Source: Pseudomonadota bacterium (GTDB lineage Bacteria; Pseudomonadota; Gammaproteobacteria; Burkholderiales; Burkholderiaceae_D). Taken from it: 32,000 bases of DNA. Shown here piece by piece: positions 1,719-29,904 of the stretch. The notes beneath the pieces are model-generated. The model did not search any database, was not told where the DNA came from, and saw only the letters and a list, made by a program, of their open reading frames with translations. A program made the position numbers and the translations under genes. The number at the start of each line of letters is the position of its first letter. The stretch's first letter is position 1. The stretch spans positions 208,151-240,150 of the forward strand of contig JBKPEJ010000023.1 of assembly GCA_046728335.1 (NCBI GenBank), written 5' to 3'.

Positions 1719-3803
1719 GTGAAACGATATTTGCTAAGCGCCTTGACCCTGAGCCTGATCGCCGGCTTTTCCCACGCCGGCGAGGCGACTGCGGTCGCCG
1801 CCAAGACCAAGGCTGCAGTTTCCGCCAAACCGGGAAAGCATGCGCTCGCATCCGGCATCGCGGTCGAATACATCGACCCGTCGGTGCGCGTGCAGGACGA
1901 CTTCTTCACGCACCTGAACGGCAAGTGGCTCAAGAACACCGAGATCCCGGCCGACAAATCGAGCTGGGGCACTTTCGCCAAGCTTGACGACGACCTGCGC
2001 CCGCAACTGCGCGCGATCATCGAAGACGCCGCCAAGAGCCCGAACCAGAAGGCTGGCACCGACGCCCAGCGCATCGGCGATTTCTACGCCAGCTTCATGG
2101 ACGAGAAAAAGCTCGAAACGCTCGGCCTGACGCCGTTGAACGCCGAACTGGCGCGCATCGCCGCCATCAAGGACAAGGCCGAACTGCCGGCCATGATAGC
2201 GCACCTGGGCCAGCTGGGCGTGCGCGTGCCTTACGATTTCGGCATCCACCAGGACGCCAAGGATTCGACCAAGTACGTGGCCGACATCTCGCAAGGCGGC
2301 CTGGGCCTGCCTGACCGCGACTACTACCTGAAAGCGGACGACGCCAAGCTGGCCGATGCCCTCGCCAAGTACCAGGTCCACGTCGAGAAGATGCTGGCGC
2401 TGGCCGGCGACAAGACCGCCGCGGCAGACGCCAAGGCGATCGTCGCGTTCGAAACCGAACTGGCGCGGGTGCAGTGGACCAAGGTGGAGAACCGCGATCC
2501 GGTCAAGACCTACAACAAGGTCGAGCTGGCGAAGATGGCCGAAGTCGCGCCTGGCTTCGACTGGAAGACCTACCTCGATGCGGCCGGCATCAGCAGCAAG
2601 GCAGGCTATGTCGTGGTCAGCCAGCCGAGCTACCTGAAGGGCTTCGCCGAGGTATCGAACAAGACTTCGCTCGATACCTGGAAAGTCTACCTGCAGATGC
2701 ACCTGATCAGCGCCTATGCCAACTTCCTGTCGAAGCCCTTCGTCGACGAGCGCTTCGCGTTCTACGGCACCACCCTGTCGGGCGTGAAGGAAATGCAGCC
2801 GCGCTGGAAGCGTGCGGTGGGTACGGTCGAAACGGCGATGGGCGAGAGCCTGGGCAAGCTGTATGTCGCGAAGCACTTCCCGGCCGAGCGCAAGGCGCGC
2901 ATGGAGGAACTGGTCAACAACCTGCTGGCCGCCTACAAGCAAAGCATCAACACGCTGGACTGGATGAGCCCTGAGACCAAGAAGGAAGCGCAGGCCAAGC
3001 TGGCCAAGTTCACCGTCAAGATCGGCTATCCGAACCGCTGGAAGGACTACTCGGCATTGGTGGTCTCGCGCGACGACCTGGTCGGCAACGTGATGCGTTC
3101 GCGGATTGTGGAATCGGACCGCGAGCTCAATAAGCTGGGTAAGCCGATCGACCGCGAAGAGTGGGGCATGACGCCGCAGACCATCAACGCGTACTACAAC
3201 CCGGAGATGAACGAGATCGTGTTCCCGGCTTCGATCCTGCAGCCACCTTTCTTCGACGCCAATGCGGACGACGCGGTCAATTACGGCGCCATCGGCGGCG
3301 CGATCGGCCACGAAATCAGCCACGGCTTCGACGACCAGGGTTCGCAGTACGACGGAGACGGCAACCTGCGCGACTGGTGGACCGCGGCTGACCACAAGGC
3401 GTTCGCGGACAAGACCAAGATGCTGGTCGCGCAGTACAACGGTTACAGCCCGCTGCCGAACTATCACGTCAACGGCGAGCTGACCCTCGGCGAGAACATC
3501 GGCGACAACTCCGGCGTGGCGATTGCGTACAAGGCCTACAAGCTGTCCTTGAAGGGAAAGAAGGCGCCGGTGATCGACGGCCTGACCGGCGACCAGCGCT
3601 TCTTCATGGGCTTCGGCCAGGTATGGCGCCAGAAGATGCGCGAGCCGCAGCAGATCGTGCAGGTCAAGACCGACCCGCACTCGCCGGGCCAGTTCCGGGC
3701 CAACGGCACGATGATGAACCAGCCTGCGTTCTACGAGGCGTTCAACGTCAAGCCGGGCGACAAGATGTATTTGGCGCCGAAGGATCGCGTGATCATCTGG
3801 TGA
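1719..3803 (+). CDS. M13-family zinc metallopeptidase (neprilysin/PepO-like), full length with signal peptide
   Basis: 694-aa ORF with an N-terminal signal-like segment (MKRYLLSALTLSLIAGFSHAGEA). HEISHGFD, GENIGD and NAYY motifs are present. It starts 38 nt after the upstream paralog. Confidence 0.93.
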   Translation: MKRYLLSALTLSLIAGFSHAGEATAVAAKTKAAVSAKPGKHALASGIAVEYIDPSVRVQDDFFTHLNGKWLKNTEIPADKSSWGTFAKLDDDLRPQLRAIIEDAAKSPNQKAGTDAQRIGDFYASFMDEKKLETLGLTPLNAELARIAAIKDKAELPAMIAHLGQLGVRVPYDFGIHQDAKDSTKYVADISQGGLGLPDRDYYLKADDAKLADALAKYQVHVEKMLALAGDKTAAADAKAIVAFETELARVQWTKVENRDPVKTYNKVELAKMAEVAPGFDWKTYLDAAGISSKAGYVVVSQPSYLKGFAEVSNKTSLDTWKVYLQMHLISAYANFLSKPFVDERFAFYGTTLSGVKEMQPRWKRAVGTVETAMGESLGKLYVAKHFPAERKARMEELVNNLLAAYKQSINTLDWMSPETKKEAQAKLAKFTVKIGYPNRWKDYSALVVSRDDLVGNVMRSRIVESDRELNKLGKPIDREEWGMTPQTINAYYNPEMNEIVFPASILQPPFFDANADDAVNYGAIGGAIGHEISHGFDDQGSQYDGDGNLRDWWTAADHKAFADKTKMLVAQYNGYSPLPNYHVNGELTLGENIGDNSGVAIAYKAYKLSLKGKKAPVIDGLTGDQRFFMGFGQVWRQKMREPQQIVQVKTDPHSPGQFRANGTMMNQPAFYEAFNVKPGDKMYLAPKDRVIIW

Positions 3804-6786: not shown

Positions 6787-7662
6787 TCAGCTCAGCAGGC
6801 TTAGCAAATATTGTCCATAGCCATTCTTGGCCAGTGGTTCCGCCAGCGCAAGGACGTTTTCCCTCGTGATCCACTGCTGCGCATATGCAATTTCTTCAGG
6901 GCAGGCTACCATTAGCCCTTGGCGCTTCTGCAGTGTCGCAATGAAACTGGCGGCATCTAACAGGCTGTCGTGAGTTCCGGTATCCAGCCAGGCATAACCG
7001 CGGCCCATCATTTCGACGTTCAGTTGCCCGAGTTCGAGATAACGCCGGTTGACGTCGGTAATTTCCAGCTCGCCCCGAGCCGACGGACGAATGTCGGCGG
7101 CGAGGTCGCATACTTGCTTGTCATAGAAATACAGTCCAGTGACTGCGTAGTTGCTCTTGGGGACCTTCGGTTTTTCTTCAATGCTGATCGCGCGCTGCTT
7201 GTCGTCGAACTCGACCACCCCATAGCGCCCCGGGTCATTGACGTGGTAGGCAAAAACGCTCGCTCCGCTGGTTTGGGCGCTGGCGTGTTGCAGTTGTTTG
7301 ACGAGATCGTGACCGTAGAAAATATTGTCTCCAAGGACCAGCGCGCTTGGATCGGAGCCGACAAAGTCGCGCCCGATGATGAAGGCCTGGGCCAAGCCGT
7401 CGGGCGAGGGCTGAACCGCATACTGGATGCTGAGGCCCCATTGCGAGCCGTCGCCGAGCAGCGCGGAAAATCGCGGTGTGTCTTCCGGCGTGGAGATAAT
7501 CAGGATATCGCGAATGCCCGCCAACATGAGCGTCGTCAGCGGGTAATAGATCATCGGCTTGTCGTACACTGGCATCAGCTGCTTGGAGACCGCCTGCGTG
7601 ACGGGGTAGAGCCGTGTGCCGGAACCGCCGGCGAGGATGATGCCTTTGCGCTTAATGTCCAT
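6787..7662 (-). CDS. rfbA: Glucose-1-phosphate thymidylyltransferase (RmlA/RfbA)
   Basis: 291 aa. The N-terminal [17 protein letters not shown] nucleotidyltransferase signature and the rest of the sequence ([30 protein letters not shown]) are classical RmlA. Confidence 0.95.
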
Positions 7663-7735
7663 GTGCTATGCCTTGATCAAATTAAATGCTGAAGAATTTT
7701 GCCAGAAGGAGGCCGATGCATACCCAAGCGGCAGC

Positions 7736-8794
7736 TCAGCGGCCGTACTGCTTTCCCACCCAATTCTGATAAGCGCCGCTGGTGACATTCCCGACCCATT
7801 CCTGGTTGTCGAGATACCACTGCACCGTTTTGCGGATCCCCGTCTCGAACGTTTCGGCGGGCTTCCAATCGAGTTCTTTCGCCAGTTTGGTGGCATCGAT
7901 GGCGTAACGGCGGTCGTGCCCCGGCCGATCCTTCACGAAGGTGATTTGGGCAGCGTAGGATTTGCCATCGGCGCGCGGTTTCAGCTCGTCCAGGATATCG
8001 CACAGCGTATGCACCACTTCGAGGTTTGACTTTTCATTCCAGCCGCCGACGTTATACGTCTCGCCCGAGATGCCCGATTCCAGAACCCGCCGGATGGCGG
8101 AACAATGATCTTTTACGTACAGCCAATCGCGGATCTGCTGCCCATCGCCGTAGATCGGCAAGGGCTTGCCTGCCAGCGCATTGTGGATCACCAGCGGAAT
8201 CAGCTTTTCGGGGAAGTGATAGGGCCCGTAGTTATTCGAGCAGTTGGTGGTCAATACCGGCAAGCCGTAAGTGTGATGGTACGAGCGGACCAGGTGGTCG
8301 GACGCCGCCTTGCTTGCCGAATAGGGGCTGTTTGGTTCGTAGCTGTCGGTTTCGCTGAACGCAGGATCGTCCTTGCCTAGCGAGCCATACACTTCATCGG
8401 TCGACACGTGCAGCAGGCGGAAATCGGCCTTTTCATCGCCTTGCAGGCCGGCCCAATAGGCACGCACCGCTTCGAGCAGCCGGAACGTACCGACGATGTT
8501 AGTCTGGATGAACTCTTCCGGGCTGTCGATCGAGCGGTCGACATGCGACTCGGCCGCAAAATTGATAATCGCGCGCGGACGATGTTGCGTCAGCAGATCG
8601 GCCATCAGCTTGCGGTCGGCGATGTCGCCTTCGACAAACACGTGGCGCGGGTCGCTGGCCGCGCTGCGCAAGGTCTCGAGGTTGCCCGCATAGGTCAGTT
8701 TGTCGTAGTTAACGACGCCTTCGTCGCTGCCGGCCAACCAGTCGAGCACGAAATTTGCGCCGATGAAGCCGGCGCCGCCAGTGACAAGAATCAT
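7736..8794 (-). CDS. rfbB: dTDP-glucose 4,6-dehydratase (RmlB/RfbB)
   Basis: [15 protein letters not shown] Rossmann start plus [10 protein letters not shown] (YxxxK) of SDR dehydratases. I place the start at the ATG at 8794, which forms an ATGA overlap with the upstream stop. The 31-codon Arg/His-rich extension to 8887 in the track looks spurious. Confidence 0.93.
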
Positions 8795-9951
8795 GCGGCC
8801 ACCTCCCGGCCCGATTGGCTTGGCCACTCGATGGCGGTGACGATGTCGTCGATCATCCCCGGCAGCTGTTCTTCCAGCCCCAGCCACATCGGCAGGCGCA
8901 ATAGGCGCGCGCCAGTATCGTCGGTATTGTCCATAGTGCCGGCAGTGCGGCCAAGCTCCTTGCCATTCGGCGACGAGTGCAGCGGAATATAGTGAAACAC
9001 GGTCTGGATGTCTTTTTCCTTGAGGCGCTGGATGAGGCGGGTGCGCGTTGCAAGATCGGGCAGCAAGATGTAATACATATGGGCGTTGTGCACGCAGTCC
9101 CGCGGCACGGTAGGGCGTACGATTTTACCAGCCGCTTCCAGGGCGGCGAACCGCTGATGGTATACATTCCAGATATCGAGCCGGCGCTGATTGATCTGAT
9201 TGGCTTCCTCCAGCTGCGCCCACAGGAAGGCGGCGACGATTTCGCCCGGCAAGAAGGACGACCCGATATCTACCCAGGTGTACTTGTCGACCTGTCCCCG
9301 GAAAAACTGGCTGCGGTTGGTACCTTTTTCGCGGATGATTTCGGCGCGCGCGACAAAGCGTGGATCGTTGATCAGCAGCGCGCCACCTTCGCCGGAAATG
9401 ATGTTCTTGGTTTCATGGAACGATAAGGCCGCCATGTGGCCAAAGCTGCCTAGAGCGCGCCCTTTGTAAGTCGACATGATGCCCTGGGCGGCATCCTCGA
9501 TCACCAGAAGGTTGTGGCGTTGCGCGATAGCCATGATGGTATCCATCTCACAGCTCACGCCGGCATAGTGTACCGGCACGATCGCCTTGGTACGCGGCGT
9601 GATCGCCGCTTCGATCTTCGTTTCGTCGATGTTGAGCGTGTCCGGCCGGATGTCGACGAACACCGGCGTGGCGCCGCGCAGCACGAATGCGTTCGAAGTC
9701 GACACGAATGTATACGACGGCATGATCACTTCGTCGCCGGGCTGGATATCGGCCAGGATGGCGGCCATTTCCAGCGCGGCGGTGCAGGAGTGGGTCAGCA
9801 GTGCTTTCTGGACGCCGATGCGCTGTTCCAGCCAGGCGCTGCACTTTTTCGTGAAATTTCCATCGCCCGCCAAATGACCGCTAGCGTGCGCTTGCGAAAT
9901 GTACCAGAGCTCTTTTCCGGTCATGTACGGCCTGTTGAATGGAATGTGCAT
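8791..9951 (-). CDS. wecE: DegT/DnrJ/EryC1-family PLP aminotransferase, WecE/RffA-like (dTDP-4-keto-6-deoxyglucose 4-aminotransferase)
   Basis: Blocks that I recognise from enterobacterial WecE: [42 protein letters not shown] (PLP lysine), [20 protein letters not shown]. The start is ambiguous: ATG at 9951 (MHIPF, preferred), 9960, or 9993 in the track. Confidence 0.85.
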
Positions 9952-9964
9952 GACTTGCATGTCC

Positions 9965-10378
9965 TTATGATGATTTGCGTTGTCCGAAGGCATCCGGCGC
10001 GAATACCCAAAACTTCTGAATTAAAAACAGCATCACCGCGAGCGACGGGATCATTGCGCCCTGGACTAACTGATGCGGATATCCGAGCACATCAACAAGG
10101 ATGAACAGGACGCATATATTGATGGCATAGCCGATGCCGTAGGCGGCGCAATAGCGAAAAAAGACCTTGCTATGGGTGCCCTCATGCTCGAACGTCCACT
10201 TCTTGTTGAATACGAATGTCTGCAGCAAACCGACACTGTACAGGAGTGTCATTGCGAGCTTCGGCCCCAAGCCGAGCCGGGTCAGGCCAAGGTAGATGAC
10301 ATAGCAGAGCAGGTTGGACGCGACCCCCACGATTGCATAACGCAGCAACTGGCGTTGCACTTCAGTGAAGATCAGCAT
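9965..10378 (-). CDS. GtrA-family small membrane protein (putative polyprenyl-phosphate-sugar flippase)
   Basis: 137 aa with four predicted hydrophobic helices. LLRYAIVGVASNLLCYVIY and FNKKWTF are typical of the GtrA-like family. It overlaps the upstream GNAT stop by 7 nt. Confidence 0.8.
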   Translation of the reverse strand: MLIFTEVQRQLLRYAIVGVASNLLCYVIYLGLTRLGLGPKLAMTLLYSVGLLQTFVFNKKWTFEHEGTHSKVFFRYCAAYGIGYAINICVLFILVDVLGYPHQLVQGAMIPSLAVMLFLIQKFWVFAPDAFGQRKSS

Positions 10379-11148
10379 GGCACACCTGGCCTGACCCAGT
10401 GAAAGGTCATCTTCGGTTGTGAGAACGAAAAGCCGAGACGCGCATACAAGTTGAGCACTCGGCTGTTGCGCGCGACGATGCTCGTGCGCACTCGGGTGGC
10501 GCCACTGCGCTTGGCTTGCCCGAGCATGCAGGACCAGACGCGCCGTCCATATCCCTGACCTTGGGCCTCCGGTGCGACGGCGTTCAGGTGCCAGTAGCAG
10601 GTGCCATCGGGCAGAGATTCCGTCACAAAAAATGCAACCAGCGTGTCTCCATCCTTGATCATATACAATTCCTGCGTTGGGTGGTGCAAGGTGGTGGCGA
10701 CCCAGTTCTGGTAACGCAGGTCGCTGATCGCGGGGTCGAGCCGCGGATCCACCTTGAAGCGCTCATGCTGGAAGGATGCACCAGCAATGTCCAGTAAGGC
10801 AGGCAGATCCGCTTCAACGGCGCGCAGAATGTTCAAGGTGTCGGCGTGCCCCGCGGGCCCGAATGCGCCGAGATCGAATTCTGGTGCATAAAGCATTTCG
10901 ATGAAGCGGAAGCCGCAGTCCTCGAGTAGCATCGATTCAGCCATGAAATCGTGAGGCAGGCGACAGCTCACCAAGCGGGCTCCGATCTGATCGCGTTGTT
11001 CTGCGAACAGTTGCATGTCGGCCGTTGCATTGTTGCCGGTCACCTTGATGTCATCAATTTGCATCACTGGGAATTTGCACACGACCTCATCCCACGGGGC
11101 GCGGACCCAAGTCAGCCGCAGCGACGGCGTAATCAGTTGTTCAGACAC
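10372..11148 (-). CDS. GNAT-family N-acetyltransferase, WecD/RffC-like (dTDP-4-amino-4,6-dideoxyhexose acetyltransferase)
   Basis: 258 aa. The C-terminal GNAT core (V.PEAQGQGYGRRVW ... ARNSRVLNLYARLGF) follows an N-terminal domain with the same two-domain layout as WecD. It sits beside the WecE-like aminotransferase and overlaps the GT2 stop by 8 nt. Confidence 0.7.
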   Translation of the reverse strand: MSEQLITPSLRLTWVRAPWDEVVCKFPVMQIDDIKVTGNNATADMQLFAEQRDQIGARLVSCRLPHDFMAESMLLEDCGFRFIEMLYAPEFDLGAFGPAGHADTLNILRAVEADLPALLDIAGASFQHERFKVDPRLDPAISDLRYQNWVATTLHHPTQELYMIKDGDTLVAFFVTESLPDGTCYWHLNAVAPEAQGQGYGRRVWSCMLGQAKRSGATRVRTSIVARNSRVLNLYARLGFSFSQPKMTFHWVRPGVPC

Positions 11149-12124
11149 GATGCTTCATCTCGCCGGCGATTTGGTCGGAAGTGGCGGCCGGCAACTCGCC
11201 TGACTGCTTATGACGAATGACGTATTGAGGTTTACGATTGACGTTCAGATGCAGACGGCCAAGGTACTCGCCAATCACGCCCAACGCGAGCAATTGGGCC
11301 CCGCCCAAAATCAGCACGGTGATGATCGTCGATGCGAATCCCGGTACCGTGATATTCGAAATGAAGTACTGGAATAAATAGTAAAACCCGACCCCGAACC
11401 CACAAAGTGCGGTCGTGAGTCCAAGTGCACTGACAAGCTGGAGGGGAATCAGGGAGAAGTTGGTGTAGAGATTGAGCGCCAGCGCGAGGAGCTTGCCAAG
11501 CGAATATCCAGAATTGCCTTCGGCGCGGGAATGATGTTCTACTTCAACGCCGGCGATTCGACTAGTGCACCATGCCAGCAGGCCATCGAGGTAGGTAAAG
11601 TTTAGATCGTAGAACATCACGCTTTGCGCCAATTGGTGGGTCATGACGCGAAATGGCGTAGGCGTCACGGGGTTGCGAAACACCGTGCGATAAAAATGCC
11701 AGACGATGGTCGAGCCCAAGTTGCGCCAAGCTGCGTGCTGGCGATTACCCGGGCAACCGTAGACCAGGTCGAGGTGATTGTTTTGGATGTGGTGCAGCAG
11801 CTTCGGAATTTCCTCCGGAGGATTTTGAAGGTCGTCATCCATAGTTACAACGTAAGCCCCGCGCGCCATGCCCAAGCCACACATCAGAGTGTTGTGTTGG
11901 CCGTAGTTGCGCATTAACTGGACGGCGAGGACGTGCACCGGATCTTTTACCGCAAGGGCTTGCATCGCCGGCCATGAATCGTCGCGACTGCCATCGTCTA
12001 CCAAGATTATTTCGTAATTTTTTGACATTGGGCCGAGCGTCTTCGTGAGTCGCTCGTGCAACTGGTCCAGGGTGCGCGCCGAGTTATACACCGGTACGAC
12101 AACGGAAATGTCCAATTCAGGCAT
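11141..12124 (-). CDS. Family-2 glycosyltransferase with C-terminal TM hairpin (ArnC/GtrB-like polyprenyl-phosphate glycosyltransferase)
   Basis: ISVVVPVYNS ... ILVDDGSRD ... TMDDDLQNPPEEI (DxD) is a GT2 signature. Two C-terminal hydrophobic helices resemble those of ArnC/GtrB/DPM1-type enzymes. I prefer the ATG at 12124, preceded by GGGAG. The track start at 12235 adds 37 non-conserved residues. Confidence 0.85.
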   Translation of the reverse strand: MPELDISVVVPVYNSARTLDQLHERLTKTLGPMSKNYEIILVDDGSRDDSWPAMQALAVKDPVHVLAVQLMRNYGQHNTLMCGLGMARGAYVVTMDDDLQNPPEEIPKLLHHIQNNHLDLVYGCPGNRQHAAWRNLGSTIVWHFYRTVFRNPVTPTPFRVMTHQLAQSVMFYDLNFTYLDGLLAWCTSRIAGVEVEHHSRAEGNSGYSLGKLLALALNLYTNFSLIPLQLVSALGLTTALCGFGVGFYYLFQYFISNITVPGFASTIITVLILGGAQLLALGVIGEYLGRLHLNVNRKPQYVIRHKQSGELPAATSDQIAGEMKHRV

Positions 12125-12399
12125 CCGCTCGCTCCCGTATGCTGTGCTTTGGAAGGAGTTGCGATACGGCGCCGTTTCCGACATATGCATATCTGGTCTC
12201 AGGTTTTTGGCGGAATTTTTGACAATAGCCGCCATGGAAGGGAAATAAATAGAATAACTGTTGTTGTGAAATTATACAATAAAGCCCGGAAAAGAATTGC
12301 AACGCGAACAATATTGTTGTAAAATAGATAAATAATTGAGATGGCTTTGCTTCTTTTGTAGCATCGCTGACCGTTCCAGCCCGCGACGCCGGATATTTG
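12125..12399. promoter_or_regulatory. AT-rich divergent promoter region between the GT2 operon and the polytopic membrane protein gene
   Basis: A 275-bp, conspicuously AT-rich spacer between divergent genes. It contains a perfect 12-bp palindrome, aacaatattgtt, at 12307-12318. Confidence 0.5.
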
Positions 12400-14286
12400 A
12401 TGATAAAAAAACCACAAAATCTAAGGCCGACACTGACGTTGATATTTTCAACCACCCTGCTTGTGCAATTGGCGTTACTGCTTTTTAGCATGCCGCTCAG
12501 CCAGGTCCTCTCCGGCGCACACAGTTTCTACATCGACAACCCTTACCACGTTTACCAACTCGAGTTGGGGAAGGCATTGCTTCATCAAGGGCAGTTGCTT
12601 GGTTACGACCCGTTCCTTGGCGCCGGCCATCTTGGGGGCATGAACGATAACGTCAGCGCGCGCGTGCCGGTGTTCTTGTCAGCCTTGTTACCCGCCGGGT
12701 TGCCCTCCGGCGCTGTTTATTCTCTTTACATACTGGCGTGCGCCCTGGTGGCGCCGCTTGCCGTTGTGTGGACGGCACGCATGTTGCACTGGCCAACCTT
12801 GCATACCGCGATTGCGTCGGCCCTTGGTCTCGCCCTGTGGTGGATCGGTGCGCTGCATTGGTACCACACAGCGGGGATGGCCAGCTTCATTTGTGGTTCA
12901 TATCTGGGGCTGCCCTACGCGGTGTGGACCTGGAACCTCTGCAGCCAAGCGGAACGCAAACCGGCAAGTTTGGTAGCCGCAGGCATTTTAGGCGGCTTGG
13001 GTATGTGGCTGCACCCCTTGTTTCCCGTGCTGGCTGCTGCGCTATTCCTGGGATTTTTCCTGTGGAACACGCGAAGGGCGCTCGTTCCGGCCATCCTGTT
13101 GCGCGGCAGTGCAATTGCCGCGATTGCGCTCCTGGTAAACGCACCGTGGCTGATTGCCGTGCTCGGATCACACGATATCGGGGCGAACCCGCTAGTGGTC
13201 CATCCCTTCCAGAAAGCCGTCGGAATCATGGTCGCATTGCGGCCCGCGATGGGCCAATGGGCGTCCCAGGCGATGGGAACGTTTCTTAATCCGCTGATGT
13301 TGCTGACATGCTGCGCCGGCCTCTATTTCATGCCGCGCGATCAACGCCGCCGGATGCTGCCATTCCTGTTCGCCGGGCTGACGCTGCTACTGTTCGCCGC
13401 GTTTGGCGCGGCCAGCATCACTCTTGGGCAGTTGCAGCCGAATCGATTCATTGCGCCCGCGTTTCTGCTGGTGGGTCTCGGCGCGGCCTATTGCATTGGC
13501 GAGTACGTCGTACGGCTGCGCTTTTCTGGCCAGCGTGTTCCGAAACTGGCCTCCATCGCATTTGCGGTCCTACTCAGCGTGTATGGTGGGCGAGAAATTG
13601 TACGCGAGGCCACGGCGGGCATTCATGGGCATTACGGCAAAGCGCCGCCAGAGCTTTCCCAGCCGCCTGCGCTGGTGGCGCAACTGGAATCCTGGATCTC
13701 GGCCAACACCTCGGCAGACGGGCGCATCATTTTCGAAACCTCGCTCGCGCGGATCCACGGCGGCGGCCATGTGGCCGGCTTGATTGCCTTGAAGACAGGA
13801 CGCGAATTCGTGGGTGCAGCCTATCCGTATTCGCTGCCTGCAGTGTCCGTGTGGGATCACATGGCCTTCGGCAGGCCTGTCGGAGATTTGACCAAGGCTG
13901 ATTGGTCGCGCGCGTTCGACATGTACAACGTGGGATGGGTGATTGCGCATTCGTCGGAATTAAAGCAGGCGATGGATGCGTTGCCGGCCGCGAAAGCTGT
14001 GGCGAAGTTCGACAAGATTCAGATCTACAAGATCGATCGCCTCCTTTCTTTCATGCAGGCGAGCAGTGGTCGGATCGCCGCGCGCAGCTTCAACCGGGTC
14101 GATGTGGCGGGCGCCAGCGGATCGCAGGTGGTACTCAAGTACCATTGGCTGCCGGGCTTGGTGACCAATCCACCGAGAACAATCGAACCGGTGCAGCTGG
14201 CGCCCGATTTCCCGCCTTTCATCCGGATCCTGAATCCACCTGATCACTTCACGGTGTCGCTGTGCCCTAAATGCAAGCCGCAGTAA
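12400..14286 (+). CDS. Large polytopic inner-membrane protein with C-terminal soluble domain (candidate GT-C-fold periplasmic glycosyltransferase)
   Basis: 628 aa from the ATG at 12400 (a TTG lies at 12397). About a dozen hydrophobic segments occupy the first ~400 aa and are followed by a ~230-aa hydrophilic domain. I recognise no family signature; the functional call rests on context only. Confidence 0.55.
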   Translation: MIKKPQNLRPTLTLIFSTTLLVQLALLLFSMPLSQVLSGAHSFYIDNPYHVYQLELGKALLHQGQLLGYDPFLGAGHLGGMNDNVSARVPVFLSALLPAGLPSGAVYSLYILACALVAPLAVVWTARMLHWPTLHTAIASALGLALWWIGALHWYHTAGMASFICGSYLGLPYAVWTWNLCSQAERKPASLVAAGILGGLGMWLHPLFPVLAAALFLGFFLWNTRRALVPAILLRGSAIAAIALLVNAPWLIAVLGSHDIGANPLVVHPFQKAVGIMVALRPAMGQWASQAMGTFLNPLMLLTCCAGLYFMPRDQRRRMLPFLFAGLTLLLFAAFGAASITLGQLQPNRFIAPAFLLVGLGAAYCIGEYVVRLRFSGQRVPKLASIAFAVLLSVYGGREIVREATAGIHGHYGKAPPELSQPPALVAQLESWISANTSADGRIIFETSLARIHGGGHVAGLIALKTGREFVGAAYPYSLPAVSVWDHMAFGRPVGDLTKADWSRAFDMYNVGWVIAHSSELKQAMDALPAAKAVAKFDKIQIYKIDRLLSFMQASSGRIAARSFNRVDVAGASGSQVVLKYHWLPGLVTNPPRTIEPVQLAPDFPPFIRILNPPDHFTVSLCPKCKPQ

Positions 14287-14601: not shown

Positions 14602-15483
14602 TTATTTTGCTGCTGCCGCCATATAGTCCACGGCTGCCTTGACTTCGTCGTCCGATGCGGAAGAACCGCCCTTCGGAGGCATCATGCCTGCCTTGCCCTG
14701 GAAGCCCTTGATCGCGTGTTCGTAAAGGACCGCAGTGCCTTGCTTGACGCGTGGCGCCCAGGCTGCCTTGTCGCCGAACTTAGGCGCGCCGGCGATGCCT
14801 GCACCGTGGCAAGCCACGCACGCGGTGGTGTAGAGGTTCTTGCCGGCATCGGCGGCCAGCTTAGGCGCTGCCGCGGCGGCAGGAACTGCCTCTGCAGGAG
14901 CGCTCGCCGCGGCAGGTGCGGCCGCAGCCGGGGTGGCGACTGCTGGCGCTGCTGCCGGGGCAGCAGCAGGGGCCGCAGGAACTTCAGGCTCCTTGAATTT
15001 CGCGCCGCCTTTGTTTGCCATGTAGACCACTGCGCGTGCCACTTCGACGTCGTCGAGGTCAGGATTGCCGCCTTTTGCCGGCATCGCGCGGATGCCTTCG
15101 ATCGCGTGCTTGAGCAGGGTGTCGTAGCCTTGTGCAATGCGGGGAGCCCATGCGCCGGCATCGCCGAGCTTTGGCGCACCGGCCGCGCCGCTGGTATGGC
15201 AGGCGGAGCAGATGGCGGTGTAGACGGCCTCGGCTGCTTGCAGCACTTTCGGCGCGTTCGCGTCTTTCAGGGTGAAACCTTCATCAGCCACGGGACGCAC
15301 ACGCGCCGCAATCGCTTCCGCGCTCTGGCTTTCGGTACCGGCACCGGTCAGTTTGGTGGTGGTTACGAATGACACCAGCAAGATGATGCCGATGACGGTG
15401 ACCAGGAAGAAACCGGCCACGGCAGCGACGAGCTGCTTCGGGGTACGGATCGCGGATTCGTGTTCGTTATGTGCGTCGCTCAT
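14602..15483 (-). CDS. Membrane-anchored dihaem c-type cytochrome (tandem cytochrome c5 domains)
   Basis: Two CxxCH haem sites (CSACH, CVACH), each followed by a GAPK.GD..AW.PR ... MPPKGG c5-like core. It has an N-terminal TM helix (VAGFFLVTVIGIILLVSFV) and an Ala/Pro-rich linker. I place the start at the ATG at 15483, preceded by AAGGAA; the track start at 15546 is a GTG. Confidence 0.88.
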   Translation of the reverse strand: MSDAHNEHESAIRTPKQLVAAVAGFFLVTVIGIILLVSFVTTTKLTGAGTESQSAEAIAARVRPVADEGFTLKDANAPKVLQAAEAVYTAICSACHTSGAAGAPKLGDAGAWAPRIAQGYDTLLKHAIEGIRAMPAKGGNPDLDDVEVARAVVYMANKGGAKFKEPEVPAAPAAAPAAAPAVATPAAAAPAAASAPAEAVPAAAAAPKLAADAGKNLYTTACVACHGAGIAGAPKFGDKAAWAPRVKQGTAVLYEHAIKGFQGKAGMMPPKGGSSASDDEVKAAVDYMAAAAK

Positions 15484-15676
15484 GATTTCCTTATTACAAT
15501 TTTCAAAGCTGCCGGCGGACCTGCTTGCTGGTTGATATGCAAACACTCGCCAAACCCGCGATTATAGACCCAAAGGCCCTGTTTTGGAACGGCAATTGCC
15601 CGCGACGCGACACTTTCCATGGACGGGACGATGGAAAAACTGTATCCTTCGCATCTCTTCAGAAATTCCCCCCAGC

Positions 15677-15752
15677 GCGGCTGTAGCTCAGTGGATAGAG
15701 TATTGGCCTCCGAAGCCAAGGGTCGTGGGTTCGATCCCCGCCAGCCGCACCA
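15677..15752 (+). tRNA. tRNA-Arg (anticodon CCG), CCA encoded
   Basis: I folded the 76-nt cloverleaf by hand: acceptor gcggctg/cagccgc, D-stem gctc/gagt, anticodon stem ttggc/gccaa with loop ctCCGaa, T-stem gtggg/cccgc with loop ttcgatc, discriminator a, then cca. Confidence 0.93.
15705..15752 (+). repeat. attL core (3' 48 nt of the intact tRNA-Arg)
   Basis: ggcctccgaagccaagggtcgtgggttcgatccccgccagccgcacca is identical to 29440-29487. Confidence 0.9.
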
Positions 15753-17562: not shown

Positions 17563-17987
17563 CCTTCTACAAAATTGTCTGCGGTGCCGGCGTGCTTGTC
17601 CAGGGGGAGTCACCTGATTTCCTTTTGTGTGTTGAACAGGCAAGAGAAGCTAAATTTGCTTGGGCGGTTCGCCTTCCTGAAAGCACTTTGCGAGTTCATT
17701 TTTTCTATCCGAATCGCAAACGAGTCCCATCCTCGGATGTCGCCGCGGCAATGCGCGCGCTTGAAAATCCATCAATTGCGGCTGCTGTAGCTCGCCGTCG
17801 TGCCGTAGCCACGCAAGTTCCGTCTGCCCGCAGCGAAGCGAGGACAGCCGGAACTTGTGCGGCTGCGGGCCGGGGTTTTGCTGTTGCAGTTGACTTTGAT
17901 TTTCGTCAGGCGGGCGTGGTAGCACCGCCTGACAGTCTCACCGGTGGGAATTCCGATGTGGATGCCTCGCTTCGCGGCGGGGATTGA
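17559..17987 (+). CDS. Hypothetical ORF (weak; the region may instead be non-coding origin/packaging DNA)
   Basis: GTG start overlapping the xis stop. The second half is Ala/Arg-rich and looks non-coding. It contains a 9-bp-stem hairpin at 17905-17933. Confidence 0.25.
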   Translation: MTFYKIVCGAGVLVQGESPDFLLCVEQAREAKFAWAVRLPESTLRVHFFYPNRKRVPSSDVAAAMRALENPSIAAAVARRRAVATQVPSARSEARTAGTCAAAGRGFAVAVDFDFRQAGVVAPPDSLTGGNSDVDASLRGGD

Positions 17988-17992
17988 TCTTT

Positions 17993-19180
17993 ATGGCATA
18001 CGACACCGTCGCAATTAGATCGCCGTACCTGGGCGAATCGGAAATTAACCATATTGAATTGCAGTGTTTTCGTCGCACAGGCGTCGAAATGACTACGGGA
18101 CACGAAAAATACGTGATTTTCACTGGTGAATTGGAGTCGTCCGCTGATGCTCGCATCGGACTTGTGGTCAAGCGAAAAGAGTATGTGCTGGATCAGAACG
18201 GACGACCGGCTGAGGTCGAGTGCGATCCATACCTACTTGTCGAAGCATCTGTTCACAAGATGCAGCTCGGGCACAACATCTACGGCGGTCCAACAAACTT
18301 TCAGAAAGCCTGCCGCGAACTGGTCACGTTAATCGAACGACTGCTCGAAGTCGAATTGCCGAGAGCCGATGTATGGACTGTGCGTCGGACGGATGTCGCC
18401 CTCGTATTCCGAGTAGCGGAAGAAGGATGTAAGGAATTTTTTGCGGGAATGAAGAATTCAAATTTTCCACGACGGGGACGCGGGAAAGCGTTCTACAACA
18501 TGGGGTTCTATTTTCCTGGGAAGACGACGACTCTCAAGGGATACCACAAAGGCACAGAGTTCGCCCTTCACGACAAGGCGCGGCTTCGGGGGTTTTACCG
18601 GAACTACTTCATGTACAAGTTTGGAAAAAATGATCTAAGAAATCATGAGCGCCTTGAAAAAAAGATTGAGGCGCTCCAACGACTTGCGAATAGTCGCTTG
18701 CGCTTGGAAGTGGAGATCCACGCGCCGAAGCTTGAATACGATTTTGGGAAATGTCCACGGGTTGATGAGGTATCGGATGCGTATTTGCAGCAAGTCTTCG
18801 ACACGGAAGTCGAGAAGCTGCTCAGGGAAGGAAAACAAGGTATGGACAGCGTAAGGACGAACAGAGCGGTGCTTCGCAGATTGAAAGAGGTGTACGGGGA
18901 TTTGAATGGCCAGAGGCTGCACGGATTTTGGTCGATGCTTTCAACAGAGGGAGATGAATTTACGCGAGGCGAGGTGCCAAGGGCGTCTTTCTATCGATAC
19001 CGAAAGCAACTGGAAGAGGCGGGCGTGTCCTGGCGAAATACAGATTTGAAGGTGATTGCAAACGATGGCGCTTTGCCGTTCGATTTCGCTCCGATTCGAT
19101 CAGATAGGCGATTGTGCTTTTTACCGGCGCGCAATCGTGAGGAGTATCAAGTAAGCCGGAAAATGTTGCAAGCAGCGTAA
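17993..19180 (+). CDS. Filamentous-phage replication initiation protein (gene II / Phage_CRI-like)
   Basis: 395 aa from the ATG at 17993. The N-terminus MAYDTVAIRSPYL is of the type seen in gene II/X-family rolling-circle initiators. It lies directly upstream of the ssDNA-binding and coat genes, as in Cf/Lf/RSS-type inoviruses. Confidence 0.65.
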   Translation: MAYDTVAIRSPYLGESEINHIELQCFRRTGVEMTTGHEKYVIFTGELESSADARIGLVVKRKEYVLDQNGRPAEVECDPYLLVEASVHKMQLGHNIYGGPTNFQKACRELVTLIERLLEVELPRADVWTVRRTDVALVFRVAEEGCKEFFAGMKNSNFPRRGRGKAFYNMGFYFPGKTTTLKGYHKGTEFALHDKARLRGFYRNYFMYKFGKNDLRNHERLEKKIEALQRLANSRLRLEVEIHAPKLEYDFGKCPRVDEVSDAYLQQVFDTEVEKLLREGKQGMDSVRTNRAVLRRLKEVYGDLNGQRLHGFWSMLSTEGDEFTRGEVPRASFYRYRKQLEEAGVSWRNTDLKVIANDGALPFDFAPIRSDRRLCFLPARNREEYQVSRKMLQAA

Positions 19181-21915: not shown

Positions 21916-22068
21916 ATGAGCCCCTCTATGACCTACACATGGGATTGGCTGCAAGAGCTTTCTCAGATGTGCACGTTCTCCTTCTCCGATTATTTGGTGT
22001 GTTGCTGTGTGATCGGAGTTGGGGTGCTGGCTTGGGGAACTTGGCGAAGGAGCTGCCGTGCCGATTAA
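21916..22068 (+). CDS. Possible 50-aa Cys-rich small membrane ORF overlapping the zot start
   Basis: MSPSMTYTWDWLQELSQMCTFSFSDYLVCCCVIGVGVLAWGTWRRSCRAD. No clear RBS. It fills the 146-nt gap between the g6p-like and zot genes. Confidence 0.25.
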   Translation: MSPSMTYTWDWLQELSQMCTFSFSDYLVCCCVIGVGVLAWGTWRRSCRAD

Positions 22069-23212
22069 CGTATACACCGGGCTGATGCGATCAGGAAAAA
22101 GCTACGAAGTTGTATCGGAAGTCATCGTGCCTGCAATTCGTTCAGGGCGCAGAGTCGTGACAAATGTTGACGGCATCTCCGAGGAGAAGATACACGACTA
22201 CCTACGGTCCTTGCATTCTACCGACGACGATTCGTTGTTCGGGAAAGTAATACACGTCGAGAACGCGCAGGTGTTCGATGAGGAATTCTTCCCTTACTAC
22301 GATGATGCCAAAGGTGTTCACACCGACACGACCGTGCAGCCAGGTGATCTCGTCTGCATCGACGAAGCATGGCGATTTTGGGGAGCGTCAGGCAGCAAAA
22401 TTCATAAGAATCATAAATCGTTCTTCCTGGAACACGGCCATTTCACGCACGAGAAGACGAAGGTCGCCTGTGACTTGGTGCTGATGATCCAAGATATGTC
22501 CACCTTGAATCGGTTCGTCAAGAACGTCGTCGCGTTCAACTTTAGAACCCACAAGAAGGTTGCGTTGGGGATGGGGAACACCTACAGCCTGAATATGTGG
22601 GAAGGGCACAAGCAGTCCAACGCGACACTTATTGGAAATTGGGTACGACGGTACAAAAAGGAGGTATTCCCGCTGTATTCGAGCTTCAAGGGTGGCGCGC
22701 AAGGCGTCATGGTTAATGCTGATCGGCGCCAAAATATATTCACAAATAGAAAGCTGTGGTTCCTAGTTGTTGTCCTGGTGGCTGGCGGCTGGCTTGCCGG
22801 CACGAACATATGGAAGTTTTTTCATCCTGCTCCGGTTGGCAAAGACGGCAAGCCTCTTTCCTCGACCGTCGCGAGTGTGAATAGCTCGTCTGCTCGGCAA
22901 TCAGCACTTCCAGCCGGTGCGGGGACAGCACGGGCATCCAGTGGCATCGCCGTCATCGTTCCGGTAAGCGACGACTGGCGACTCGCAGGAACGTACAGCA
23001 CGAACGGAGAAAATTGGGTAGTCCTTACAAATGCGGCCGGAGCAATCAGAGTAGCGTCGCCGTCGCAGTTCCAAAATTTCGGAATCGCGCAAATTGGTGA
23101 GGTTGACGGCGCCAGAGTTAGTCAGTGGTCCGGGCCGTCGCGCACAATTTCCGGATCGAGCACGGTTAGCGCCCCCGGTGCAGCCGCCGCGCCCGTTTTT
23201 TTTAAGAAGTGA
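22058..23212 (+). CDS. Zonula occludens toxin-like assembly ATPase (g1p)
   Basis: N-terminal P-loop INVYTGLMRSGKSYEVV, Walker B-like LVCIDEAW, and a central TM helix (LWFLVVVLVAGGWLAG), as in g1p/Zot. I place the start at the GTG at 22058, 5 nt after GAAGGAG; the track TTG at 22019 is less likely. Confidence 0.85.
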   Translation: MPINVYTGLMRSGKSYEVVSEVIVPAIRSGRRVVTNVDGISEEKIHDYLRSLHSTDDDSLFGKVIHVENAQVFDEEFFPYYDDAKGVHTDTTVQPGDLVCIDEAWRFWGASGSKIHKNHKSFFLEHGHFTHEKTKVACDLVLMIQDMSTLNRFVKNVVAFNFRTHKKVALGMGNTYSLNMWEGHKQSNATLIGNWVRRYKKEVFPLYSSFKGGAQGVMVNADRRQNIFTNRKLWFLVVVLVAGGWLAGTNIWKFFHPAPVGKDGKPLSSTVASVNSSSARQSALPAGAGTARASSGIAVIVPVSDDWRLAGTYSTNGENWVVLTNAAGAIRVASPSQFQNFGIAQIGEVDGARVSQWSGPSRTISGSSTVSAPGAAAAPVFFKK

Positions 23213-23215
23213 ACG

Positions 23216-24496
23216 ATGAATAGAATTCTGTCCCTCTGCGTGCTGCTGTTTTCGCTGTCCGGGCTCGCCACAGCCACGCCGTCCGTACCTGCGGCTTCGA
23301 GCGCTCTGTTACCAACAAAATTCGATTTTCGCGGTGTTAACGTCGCGTCTGTTGTCCAGCTGATCTATGCTGAAGCGCTACATGAATCGTATGTGATAGA
23401 TCCGGAAGTGCTCATAGATGCGCGTACGGTATCGTTTCGATTTGAGGGGAAAAAACGTGACGTCCCAGTTTTTGTAACGGCCTTTTTTGATTCGCTCGGG
23501 TTGACGGTGATCCGAAGAGGTGGCATCGATTTCATCGCAAAAAAATCTCCGTCAATCGCTGCTCCTGGCAAAGAGGCGGAAGTGTTCATCTACCGACCTC
23601 GCTTCCGCGATGGCGCATATCTAGTGGAACTCTTGTCGCCGCTTGTTTCAGGCTCGTTCACTTCTAAGCGAGCCGTGCATGGATCAATCGTTGGAGACAG
23701 CGCAGCGACTGACAAAGTTGCACCCATGGGTTCCGCCGCCGCGTCAGTAGACCGCCAAACTGACACTTTGGTTTTTACAGGTTCGTTAGAGGACGTTGTG
23801 AAGCTTAAGAAGGTCTTGCCGCAGGTGGATCTTCCAGTCGGCGATGTCCTCGTTCGCGGGGTGTTGTACGAGGTGCAGACCGACGAAAAAAGCGGGTCTG
23901 CATTTGGGTTGGCGTTAAATCTGTTGCGCGGGTCGGTCAAGTTAGGGCTGGGACCGCTGACAACTTCACCTGGTGAAGCCTTCGTCGCTTTAAGGAACAA
24001 CACCATAGAGGCGGTCGTATCTGTGCTCGCCCAAGACTCTCGCTTCAAGGCTGTTTCGAGACCGATGTTGCGCGTCACCTCCGGCGGTGCAGGGCGCTTC
24101 ACTGTCGGACAGGATGTGCCCGTCTTGGGCTCGGTTAGCTATCCCGGCTCAGGACAAGCACCAGTGCAGTCGGTGACGTATCAATCCAGCGGCGTTATCT
24201 ACGACGTTAGGCCAGTCGTACATGATGCTTCAATCGAAGTCTCGGTGATGCAGCAGACATCGAACTTTGTCCCAACAAACACGGGAGTTGCTGGGTCTCC
24301 CACCCTTATTAAGCGAGAACTCAAATCCAATCTAAGTCTGACCGATGGAGAGATAGCGGTGATGGGGGGCTTGCGGGATTTAAAGGAAGCTCGGTCGAGC
24401 GAAGGGCTTTCGTTCCTTCCGTCCTTCTTGCGCACAAAGTTGGGCGAGAAGACCAGCGTGGAAATCCTGTTGATCCTTCAAGTAACGAAACTCTGA
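23216..24496 (+). CDS. Phage-encoded secretin (g4p-like)
   Basis: 426 aa with a signal peptide. The C-terminal secretin-domain pattern is present (GQDVPVLGS ... SNLSLTDGEIAVMGGLRD ... PSFL). It starts 4 nt after the zot stop. Confidence 0.8.
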   Translation: MNRILSLCVLLFSLSGLATATPSVPAASSALLPTKFDFRGVNVASVVQLIYAEALHESYVIDPEVLIDARTVSFRFEGKKRDVPVFVTAFFDSLGLTVIRRGGIDFIAKKSPSIAAPGKEAEVFIYRPRFRDGAYLVELLSPLVSGSFTSKRAVHGSIVGDSAATDKVAPMGSAAASVDRQTDTLVFTGSLEDVVKLKKVLPQVDLPVGDVLVRGVLYEVQTDEKSGSAFGLALNLLRGSVKLGLGPLTTSPGEAFVALRNNTIEAVVSVLAQDSRFKAVSRPMLRVTSGGAGRFTVGQDVPVLGSVSYPGSGQAPVQSVTYQSSGVIYDVRPVVHDASIEVSVMQQTSNFVPTNTGVAGSPTLIKRELKSNLSLTDGEIAVMGGLRDLKEARSSEGLSFLPSFLRTKLGEKTSVEILLILQVTKL

Positions 24497-29338: not shown

Positions 29339-29371
29339 GCGAGTGTGCGGCAAATTGATAGAAAGCAGCAG

Positions 29372-29682: not shown

Positions 29683-29750
29683 GCGGCTGTAGCTGAGTGA
29701 ATAGAGTATTCGCCTACGAAGCCAAGGTTCGATTCCCGTCAGCCGCACAA
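29683..29750 (+). pseudogene. Decayed tRNA-Arg copy (8-nt deletion removing variable loop/T-stem, several substitutions)
   Basis: It aligns with 15677-15752, including the upstream leader (ttcagattccccccagc versus ttcagaaattccccccagc). Differences: c>g and g>a in the D-arm, g>c and c>a around the anticodon (loop ctACGaa), loss of gtcgtggg, and 3' end caa instead of cca. Confidence 0.75.
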
Positions 29751-29904
29751 TACCCCTGAAACAGTGCAAGCGGTGTGCCCCCGCTTGCGCTGGAAATTTT
29801 CTTGGGCGGGTCGCTCGTCGATGGCGACGTGTGGTGATCAAGCGAACAATCCTTGCAAAGCAGCATATAATTCGTGCAACGAAACGAGCCGCACTGAGGC
29901 CCTC

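Follow-up and report, generated by a model that had tools for sequence, protein, structure and literature searches.

A Gtr-type periplasmic glycosylation module probably supplied by its own dTDP-4-amino-6-deoxyhexose pathway

Periplasmic glycosylation systems of the Gtr type pair a conserved donor side with a glycosyltransferase of the GT-C fold that is specific for the acceptor (PMC7685785, PMC11127046). The GtrB-type enzymes of the donor side are broadly regarded as users of uridine diphosphate (UDP) sugars (PMC11127046). Dolichol-phosphate-mannose synthase takes guanosine diphosphate (GDP) mannose (PMC5526996), and pentofuranose systems take phosphoribosyl pyrophosphate (PRPP) (PMC11127046). 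Region 3 in the wxc gene cluster of Xanthomonas campestris encodes the aminotransferase WxcK, the glycosyltransferase WxcL, the acetyltransferase/isomerase WxcM, the small membrane protein WxcN and the large membrane protein WxcO (PMC12573098). Mutants in wxcK or wxcN lose a FucNAc side branch derived from a deoxythymidine diphosphate (dTDP) sugar while the rhamnan O-antigen backbone persists (PMC4878081), and a review treats wxc as a distinct mechanism of side-chain synthesis (PMC8042644). Here we analyse a locus in a stretch of 32,000 nt from contig JBKPEJ010000023.1 (assembly GCA_046728335.1, positions 208,151-240,150 of the forward strand); this whole stretch is called the window, and all positions follow its numbering. 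At 6787-14286, six genes on the minus strand and a seventh, divergent one on the plus strand probably constitute a self-contained three-component, Gtr-type glycosylation module that is fed by its own dTDP-sugar pathway. An earlier interpretation of the same DNA, the sequence-only reading, had set the module apart from known systems on the ground that these use UDP-sugars, which holds broadly for GtrB-type enzymes and is too strong in view of GDP-mannose, PRPP and wxc.

In the mechanism we propose, RmlA and RmlB would produce dTDP-4-keto-6-deoxyglucose, which WecE would aminate to dTDP-4-amino-4,6-dideoxy-D-galactose (dTDP-Fuc4N). A WecD-like acyltransferase of the GNAT family would N-acylate this product, most likely to the acetamido sugar dTDP-Fuc4NAc, with the acyl group assumed. 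A family 2 glycosyltransferase (GT2) of the GtrB/ArnC type would move the sugar onto undecaprenyl phosphate (Und-P) as Und-P-beta-D-Fuc4NAc, GtrA would flip the lipid-linked sugar to the periplasmic face, and the divergently encoded GT-C enzyme would add alpha-D-Fuc4NAc to an acceptor. The beta-linked intermediate and the alpha-linked product are predicted because GT2 enzymes of this type and GT-C enzymes both invert. Judged by analogy, the architecture is that of the Gtr, Arn and CsbB/GtcA/YfhO systems.

Five of the six minus-strand genes are translationally coupled (Table 1). The GT2 and GNAT genes overlap by 8 nt (GTGTCTGA), those of GNAT and GtrA by 7 nt (ATGCTGA), and the ATG of rmlB overlaps the WecE stop codon as ATGA; the GtrA and WecE genes are separated by a 13-nt spacer containing AAGGA. 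Only rmlA is set apart, by a gap of 73 nt after rmlB. These junctions, read from the sequence, agree with the overlaps and ATGA coupling that the sequence-only reading had claimed, and all seven genes stand where it had placed them, with strong family assignments and the start codons of three adjusted. The start of rmlB is the ATG at 8794, not an upstream GTG at 8887; WecE begins at the ATG at 9951, and the WecE proteins of four other loci of this kind align from the residue encoded there; the GT2 start at 12190 agrees with a 100%-identical database entry of 349 aa (P0083). The divergent gap of about 210 nt between the GT2 and GT-C genes is AT-rich and is presumed to hold promoters for both directions. 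Two plus-strand stretches in it (12297-12325 and 12336-12364) are sigma-70-like, as judged by consensus matching only. RmlC, RmlD, Wzx, Wzy, Wzz and an initiating transferase were found neither in the operon nor among the window open reading frames scanned, as had also been noted before. The G+C content dips within the module, to 0.524 in the GtrA gene and 0.547 in the GT2 gene against 0.60-0.64 in five flanking genes, and the dip at 9965-12190 is consistent with horizontal acquisition of these genes.

Table 1. Features of the window and of related loci. Entries with an L number belong to the locus named.
Feature	Position	Strand	Basis
RmlA, glucose-1-phosphate thymidylyltransferase of 291 aa, at the end of the operon	6787-7662	-	TIGR01207, PF00483
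RmlB	7736-8794	-	TIGR01181
WecE-type pyridoxal phosphate aminotransferase, DegT family, 386 aa	8791-9951	-	NF008687
GtrA-family small multi-pass membrane protein, 137 aa	9965-10378	-	PF04138
Two-domain GNAT N-acyltransferase, 258 aa	10372-11148	-	PF00583
GT2 polyprenyl-phosphate glycosyltransferase, GtrB/ArnC type, 349 aa, first gene of the operon	11141-12190	-	alignment with GtrB 5EKP and ArnC
AT-rich divergent intergenic region, GT2 / GT-C gene	12191-12399	.	sequence reading
Predicted GT-C-fold membrane glycosyltransferase, 628 aa, unannotated family	12400-14286	+	predicted structure
Two tandem M13 metallopeptidase genes	13-1680 and 1719-3803	+	
Beta-helix protein, 587 aa	4459-6222	-	
Di-haem c-type cytochrome	14602-15546	-	
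tRNA-Arg(CCG)	15677-15752		
G2P replication protein	17984-19180		
Zot	22019-23212		
Secretin	23216-24496		
Tyrosine integrase	28358-29353	-	
Degenerate second tRNA-Arg copy	29683-29747		Rfam, 29.3 bits
Acyl_transf_3 membrane acyltransferase	29764-31125	+	
M13 pair and equivalent slot, L008	5320-9766		
Class-I methyltransferase between GtrA and WecE, L061	12271-13047		
Class-I methyltransferase between GtrA and WecE, metagenome loci L069, L070, L073, L074, L090, L097, L101, L104, L107, L120			
Polysacc_deac_1 genes, L062	7499-9749		
Polysacc_deac_1 gene, L124	7838-8785		
Weak matches to L062 deacetylases, L075	11795-13786		phmmer
Second donor cassette, L059 (= L003)	7365-9654		
Second donor cassette, L015, L040, L026, L031, L032			

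The sugar nucleotide pathway is identified by profile scores well above the equivalog cutoffs. RmlA reaches 521.9 bits with TIGR01207 (cutoff 360.65) and 266 bits with PF00483, RmlB 501.7 bits with TIGR01181 (cutoff 365), and the aminotransferase 634.6 bits with the WecE model NF008687 (cutoff 375). E. coli WecE (4PIW/4ZAH) matches the window aminotransferase with 515 bits and 65% identity, and the next match in the PDB, a perosamine synthetase, gives 186 bits. On these scores the aminotransferase qualifies as a WecE orthologue. The configuration at C4 decides between the galacto sugar Fuc4N and the gluco sugar Qui4N, and the aminotransferase profiles include TIGR02379, a model named for the gluco product. 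The galacto configuration is favoured because the enzyme is orthologous to WecE of E. coli, an organism that produces dTDP-Fuc4NAc for enterobacterial common antigen (ECA), and the sugar is most likely Fuc4NAc. The acyltransferase matches PF00583 with 48.8 bits; its best NCBIfam match is the wecD_rffC model TIGR02382 (42.8 bits, cutoff 195), it scores 41.3 against a cutoff of 219 with NF008212, and its sequence aligns with WecD (2FS5) at 21 bits. Its AlphaFold model (predicted local distance difference test score, pLDDT, 88) has WecD 2FS5 as the PDB match of highest TM-score (TMq 0.70, TMt 0.80, root-mean-square deviation 3.8 Å). The label WecD-like, applied to it earlier, is therefore retained for the predicted fold and withdrawn for orthology, and the GNAT is presumed to be a dTDP-Fuc4N N-acetyltransferase and a functional analogue of WecD. 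Its family comprises 741 clusters, every one under generic names.

The GT2 aligns with GtrB (5EKP) over residues 40-341 on 25-327 at 160 bits, including the C-terminal transmembrane hairpin, and with ArnC (9HWJ at 153 bits, 8VXH at about 150 bits, also 9BHC) from end to end, so that both transmembrane helices at the C-terminus are covered. It covers the ArnC and PgfS models of NCBIfam from end to end and stays under both equivalog cutoffs; the score with the ArnC model NF007986 is 184.5 bits against a cutoff of 529, so that the enzyme is not an ArnC equivalog. These alignments indicate a complete GtrB/ArnC architecture, and the GT2 is presumed to be an Und-P-Fuc4NAc synthase. Its close homologues number in the thousands, and the best 120 database matches are all at least 71% identical. 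One study, cited in PMC4728340, reportedly describes the GT2 enzyme SpsA in complex with dTDP. The GtrA protein scores 74 bits with PF04138 (cutoff 26.1) and, by analogy, presumably flips the Und-P-linked sugar.

The coupling between the sugar pathway and the lipid carrier genes is conserved far beyond the window. A metagenome scan seeded with the GNAT yielded 56 loci, whose neighbours were counted only where flanking sequence was present. GT2 lies immediately upstream of GNAT in 41 of 41 cases, and GtrA is the next gene downstream of it in 45 of 46. WecE follows GtrA in 22 of 23 by the distance criterion; the true count is 23 of 23, the WecE frame of locus L098 having been called from an upstream start that makes it overlap GNAT. 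RmlA or RmlB occurs in the flanks of only four of the 56 loci. The order GT2-GNAT-GtrA-(methyltransferase)-WecE is shared by four contexts of GT2 homologues, two of them from metagenome lineages and the others from a Gallionella metagenome-assembled genome (MAG) and from Massilia sp. TSP1-1-2, at identities to the window proteins of 72-78% for GT2, 59-68% for GNAT, 55-71% for GtrA and 81-84% for WecE. GT2-GNAT-GtrA-WecE is a conserved, fixed four-gene donor cassette that is common in environmental bacteria, and we found no description of it in the literature on ECA, Gtr and serotyping. That an aminotransferase and an acyltransferase are interleaved, in one fixed unit, with genes of the lipid carrier gives the strongest reason to regard what WecE and GNAT produce as the substrate of the GT2.

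Some cassettes carry additional genes. L061, as well as 10 of the 56 metagenome loci, has a class-I methyltransferase gene between GtrA and WecE, and the insertion suggests a methylated variant of the sugar. Polysacc_deac_1 genes adjoin the cassette divergently in L062 and L124. In L075, phmmer gives no more than weak matches to the deacetylases of L062, at about 4 kb downstream of WecE. Deacetylation of a lipid-linked sugar to the free amine is carried out by ArnD, NaxD and LgmC. The window contains no deacetylase gene.

The 628-aa membrane protein encoded opposite the operon has no Pfam or NCBIfam family match, including PMT/PMT_2, YfhO, STT3, the arabinosyltransferases, DUF6541 and PTPS_related, and a PDB search with the profile of its family found no relative at the sequence level. 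The AlphaFold model (pLDDT 91.1, predicted template modelling score 0.90) shows about 11 transmembrane helices and, at the C-terminus, a periplasmic domain of about 210 aa with mixed alpha/beta structure. The top 26 Foldseek matches in the PDB are all GT-C enzymes, with E-values from 2.9e-7, and comprise AftD, AftA, STT3/AglB, DPY19, ArnT, ALG12, AftB, ALG3 and PimE; AftD, AftA and oligosaccharyltransferases match best, and ArnT (5EZM) stands at rank 19. The catalytic acidic residue of GT-C enzymes sits in the first periplasmic loop, and in 45 homologues D46 and H50 are invariant in that loop, directly after transmembrane helix 1. The GT-C assignment, formerly a guess, rests on the predicted structure because the sequence route to a family gave nothing; the model supports it, and the enzyme presumably transfers Fuc4NAc from Und-P to the acceptor. 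An exhaustive search (E <= 1e-3) places it in a family of 2081 clusters at 50% identity. A database in which the GT2 gave far more matches returned 82 for this protein, and all named members are called "hypothetical protein". Distant members match DUF6541 (31 bits) or PTPS_related (47 bits) weakly, both of which we take to be GT-C clan families.

The membrane protein that accompanies the cassette differs from locus to locus. Of the 21 loci with room for one, 16 encode a polytopic protein of 430-790 aa directly after WecE. By sequence these proteins form at least five families without relation to each other, with PMT_2/PMT in five loci, YfhO in one (206 bits) and the others without a family. 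That they might be divergent orthologues of the window GT-C was rejected, as BLASTP and hhalign gave no similarity; they belong to different families. Approached from the other side, homologues of the window GT-C were gathered from 58 genomic loci, about 35 of them full-length cases. In 16 of these 35 or so a GtrB-type GT2 is encoded within about 5 kb, and in 17 a GtrA, often with WecE too, as in Massilia, Chromatium okenii and Accumulibacter. Massilia sp. TWR1-2-2 has a GT-C 68% identical to that of the window next to different donor genes, namely a GT2 (26% identical), a hexapeptide acyltransferase, WbqC, GtrA, WecE, RmlB and RmlA. A second donor cassette, in which a GT2 26% identical to that of the window is joined by a PglD-like hexapeptide acyltransferase, WbqC, GtrA and WecE, accompanies the GT-C family in Massilia, Chromatium and Accumulibacter, and it interleaves sugar and carrier genes like the first. 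By analogy, a conserved donor side with a variable GT-C that would set acceptor specificity matches the Gtr paradigm.

Several observations weigh against a Gtr-type module running on dTDP-Fuc4NAc. Whether the donor is a dTDP- or a UDP-sugar cannot be told from the GT2 sequence, and we judge such a reading unreliable; nor is there biochemistry anywhere for the use of a dTDP-sugar by a GtrB-type enzyme. The GNAT is very distant from WecD in sequence, and the acyl group is therefore assumed. The window GT-C family occurs within 8 kb in none of the 56 metagenome cassette loci, which makes its pairing with this cassette a minority combination, and in about half of the GT-C homologue loci, L008 among them, GT2 and GtrA are not found within 10 kb. 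The final sugar of the deacetylase-bearing loci (L062, L075 and L124) may be a free amine. Genes for a backbone polysaccharide are absent from the window.

GT2, GtrA and GT-C might instead work on UDP-glucose, UDP-GlcNAc or another common UDP-sugar, and the dTDP-Fuc4NAc made by RmlA, RmlB, WecE and GNAT would go to a cytoplasmic transferase whose gene lies elsewhere. Such an uncoupled arrangement would agree with the use of UDP-sugars by the Gtr-type synthases described (PMC11127046, PMC4728340), and the sequence of the GT2 leaves dTDP specificity unproven. It is nonetheless very improbable, given that WecE and GNAT keep the same interleaved places among GT2 and GtrA, with codons that overlap, across the 56 metagenome loci and several MAGs, with RmlA or RmlB near in only four, that no cytoplasmic transferase travels with the cassette, and that the independent variant with its own GT2, hexapeptide acyltransferase, WbqC, GtrA and WecE is interleaved likewise. 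The pattern favours a GT2 that would be fed by the enzymes encoded around it.

A module of this composition could also act in the manner of Arn, with Fuc4N(Ac) added to the phosphates of lipid A or to sugars of the core. The GNAT would then stand in for the formyltransferase domain of ArnA, and the GT-C for ArnT. The full-length alignment of the GT2 with ArnC, the presence of ArnT among the fold matches, the PMT_2/PMT-like partners of other cassette loci, which belong to the Pfam family of ArnT, and the deacetylase genes flanking the cassette in L062, L075 and L124 all point in this direction. We take these flanking deacetylases to be of the ArnD/NaxD type. Fuc4N is moreover the 5-methyl analogue of 4-amino-4-deoxy-L-arabinose (L-Ara4N) and stereochemically similar to it. 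An Arn-like role is all the same unlikely for the window module: with no deacetylase in the window the sugar would stay N-acylated and neutral, contrary to the logic of charge masking; the GT-C lacks a PMT/PMT_2 signature and resembles AftD, AftA and oligosaccharyltransferases in fold more closely than ArnT; and its close homologues lie in Wzx-type polysaccharide clusters. Classification of the module as an Arn system was rejected, as the GT2 falls below the ArnC cutoff, the GT-C is not ArnT-like in sequence, and ArnA, ArnD and ArnE/F were found neither in the operon nor among the window reading frames scanned.

For the presumed Gtr-type transfer of Fuc4NAc, related loci suggest what the acceptor might be. 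In L123 the same seven genes, with a GT-C 69% identical, adjoin genes for Acyl_transf_3, Wzx, another DegT protein and an amidotransferase. GT-C, GT2 and GtrA close a cluster of Wzx, GT4, GT2 and FdtA-hexapeptide genes in L060, and Wzx, Wzy_C, GT4 and Bac_transf genes surround the cassette in L061, L065 and L124. A surface polysaccharide is favoured because relatives carry the module inside such Wzx/Wzy clusters, and the acceptor is most probably an O-antigen or exopolysaccharide encoded elsewhere in the genome, not lipid A. The evidence supports a module that decorates rather than polymerises. Of the targets proposed in the sequence-only reading (lipopolysaccharide, lipid A or a protein), lipid A is thus unlikely. 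The same reading had allowed that the genes might simply be part of a conventional O-antigen cluster, and this describes relatives whose module lies inside Wzx/Wzy clusters and does not describe the window, in which it stands alone.

The neighbours of the module in the window are the M13 peptidase pair and the gene of a beta-helix lipoprotein on one side and a di-haem cytochrome c gene and tRNA-Arg on the other. In the 587-aa beta-helix protein, encoded just downstream of rmlA, a lipobox-like LTACGG motif and a long N-terminal stretch rich in Ser, Thr and Ala are combined with a DUF1565 beta-helix that has a choice-of-anchor Q domain; Thr/Pro-rich linkers join two C-terminal modules that resemble each other and contain Cys. 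Streptococcal GT-C enzymes working with a GtrB-type synthase glycosylate Ser/Thr-rich regions (PMC12041528), and the window GT-C could similarly, or in the manner of PMT, O-glycosylate disordered Ser/Thr-rich regions of envelope proteins such as this lipoprotein. The composition of the neighbouring protein and the oligosaccharyltransferases among the best fold matches would suit such a role, which is nevertheless highly unlikely, since the beta-helix protein is conserved beside the module in none of the related loci examined and the recurrent neighbours are polysaccharide genes. The lipoprotein was accordingly rejected as the main target, and a surface polysaccharide remains the preferred acceptor.

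The position of the module is itself a site of variation. In L008, from a related Burkholderiales MAG, the slot between the M13 pair and the cytochrome c gene holds only the GT-C gene, rmlA and rmlB, and Massilia sp. TWR1-2-2 carries the variant module, from which we conclude that the slot is variable; it differs among Massilia relatives in acyl chemistry and gene content. The di-haem cytochrome is kept beside it, with 80% identity in L008. This protein has an N-terminal membrane anchor and a long Ala/Pro-rich linker between its haem domains. The variable slot points to diversification of a surface antigen, which is relevant to recognition by phages and predators in bacteria of soil and water.

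Beyond the cytochrome gene, the tRNA-Arg(CCG) gene and a degenerate second copy 14 kb downstream, which has an 8-nt deletion and the same 5' leader, bracket an island with the filamentous-phage genes for a G2P replication protein, Zot and a secretin, and with a tyrosine integrase gene. Inclusion of the module in this prophage-like island was rejected, as the island starts beyond the cytochrome c gene and tRNA-Arg. A tblastn search with the GNAT against plasmid and phage collections gave no match. Directly after the degenerate tRNA copy lies a gene for a membrane acyltransferase of the Acyl_transf_3 family, to which OafA, Oac and other O-acetyltransferases of O-antigens belong, and this may be a second surface-glycan modification gene of the window.

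The combination of a dTDP-4-acetamido-4,6-dideoxyhexose pathway with a GtrB/GtrA/GT-C module, put forward in the sequence-only reading, finds support in the orthology of WecE, the full architecture of the GT2, the predicted GT-C fold and the fixed cassette. New here are the recognition of the donor side as a widespread fixed four-gene cassette, its pairing with many GT-C enzymes and the placement of the window GT-C in a large unannotated family. The evidence supports a Gtr-type system, a kind already known, with a built-in dTDP-4-amino-6-deoxyhexose donor pathway as the novel element. With only a slight preference over the contrary, we further suggest that the GT2 would be the first GtrB/ArnC-type synthase acting on a dTDP-sugar, that Und-P-Fuc4NAc would be a new lipid-linked donor delivered by a portable cassette to unrelated GT-C enzymes, that the window enzyme would represent a new GT-C family of about 2000 clusters, and that, together with adjacent deacetylases, cationic Fuc4N would offer a possible charge route independent of Arn. 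If this is true, Gtr-type periplasmic glycosylation extends to dTDP-activated 4-amino-6-deoxyhexoses and a large family of hypothetical membrane proteins gains a function. The cassette is easy to recognise, and present annotation labels its genes just "GT2", "RimI-like" and "ArnC".

Compared with the Arn system (ArnB, ArnA, ArnC, ArnD, ArnE/F and ArnT), the module would follow the same succession of 4-amination, N-acylation, transfer to Und-P by an ArnC-type GT2, flipping and transfer by a GT-C. It differs in the nucleotide (dTDP, not UDP), in having a GNAT for the formyltransferase and GtrA for ArnE/F, in the lack of a deformylase or deacetylase and in the sequence of its GT-C. With the dTDP-Fuc4NAc pathway of ECA (RmlA/RffH, RmlB/RffG, WecE and WecD) it shares orthologous RmlA, RmlB and WecE, each at equivalog level, and the two-domain WecD fold of its GNAT. 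The very distant GNAT falls short of the WecD equivalog, WecF, WecA, WecG, WzxE and WzyE are missing from the module, and the sugar would be routed to Und-P as a monosaccharide instead of entering a repeat unit linked to undecaprenyl pyrophosphate. The pentofuranose systems of Citrobacter youngae O1/O2 and of mycobacteria (decaprenylphosphoryl arabinose, DPA, and Aft) likewise follow a non-UDP route to a lipid-phosphate sugar used by GT-C enzymes for the addition of side chains (PMC11127046), and the window GT-C has its best fold matches in AftD and AftA. The pentofuranose routes begin with PRPP and another synthase family, whereas a classical GtrB-type GT2 is present here.

The closest precedent for a dTDP-fed system of the Gtr type is wxc region 3 of Xanthomonas, a precedent that is genetic and without published biochemistry. 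As in the window, a dTDP-aminodideoxyhexose pathway is clustered there with a glycosyltransferase and with small and large membrane proteins, a likeness that is one of function and literature only. WxcL is said to be GtrB-like and WxcN GtrA-like in the work of Vorholter et al. from 2001. In contrast to the 4-amino sugar expected from WecE, wxc makes a 3-amino sugar (Fuc3NAc) with a 3,4-ketoisomerase/acetyltransferase fusion and a 3-aminotransferase. From the Gtr systems of Shigella and Salmonella (GtrA, GtrB and the serotype-specific GtrC), the module departs in that its presumed donor is dTDP-Fuc4NAc from pathway genes embedded in the cassette, as against UDP-glucose, in that it was not found in phage and plasmid collections, and in that its GT-C family is without annotation. 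It agrees with them in its hairpin GT2, its GtrA, a GT-C with a conserved loop acid in the predicted structure and the linkage of these genes across taxa, and in a donor side that is conserved while the GT-C varies.

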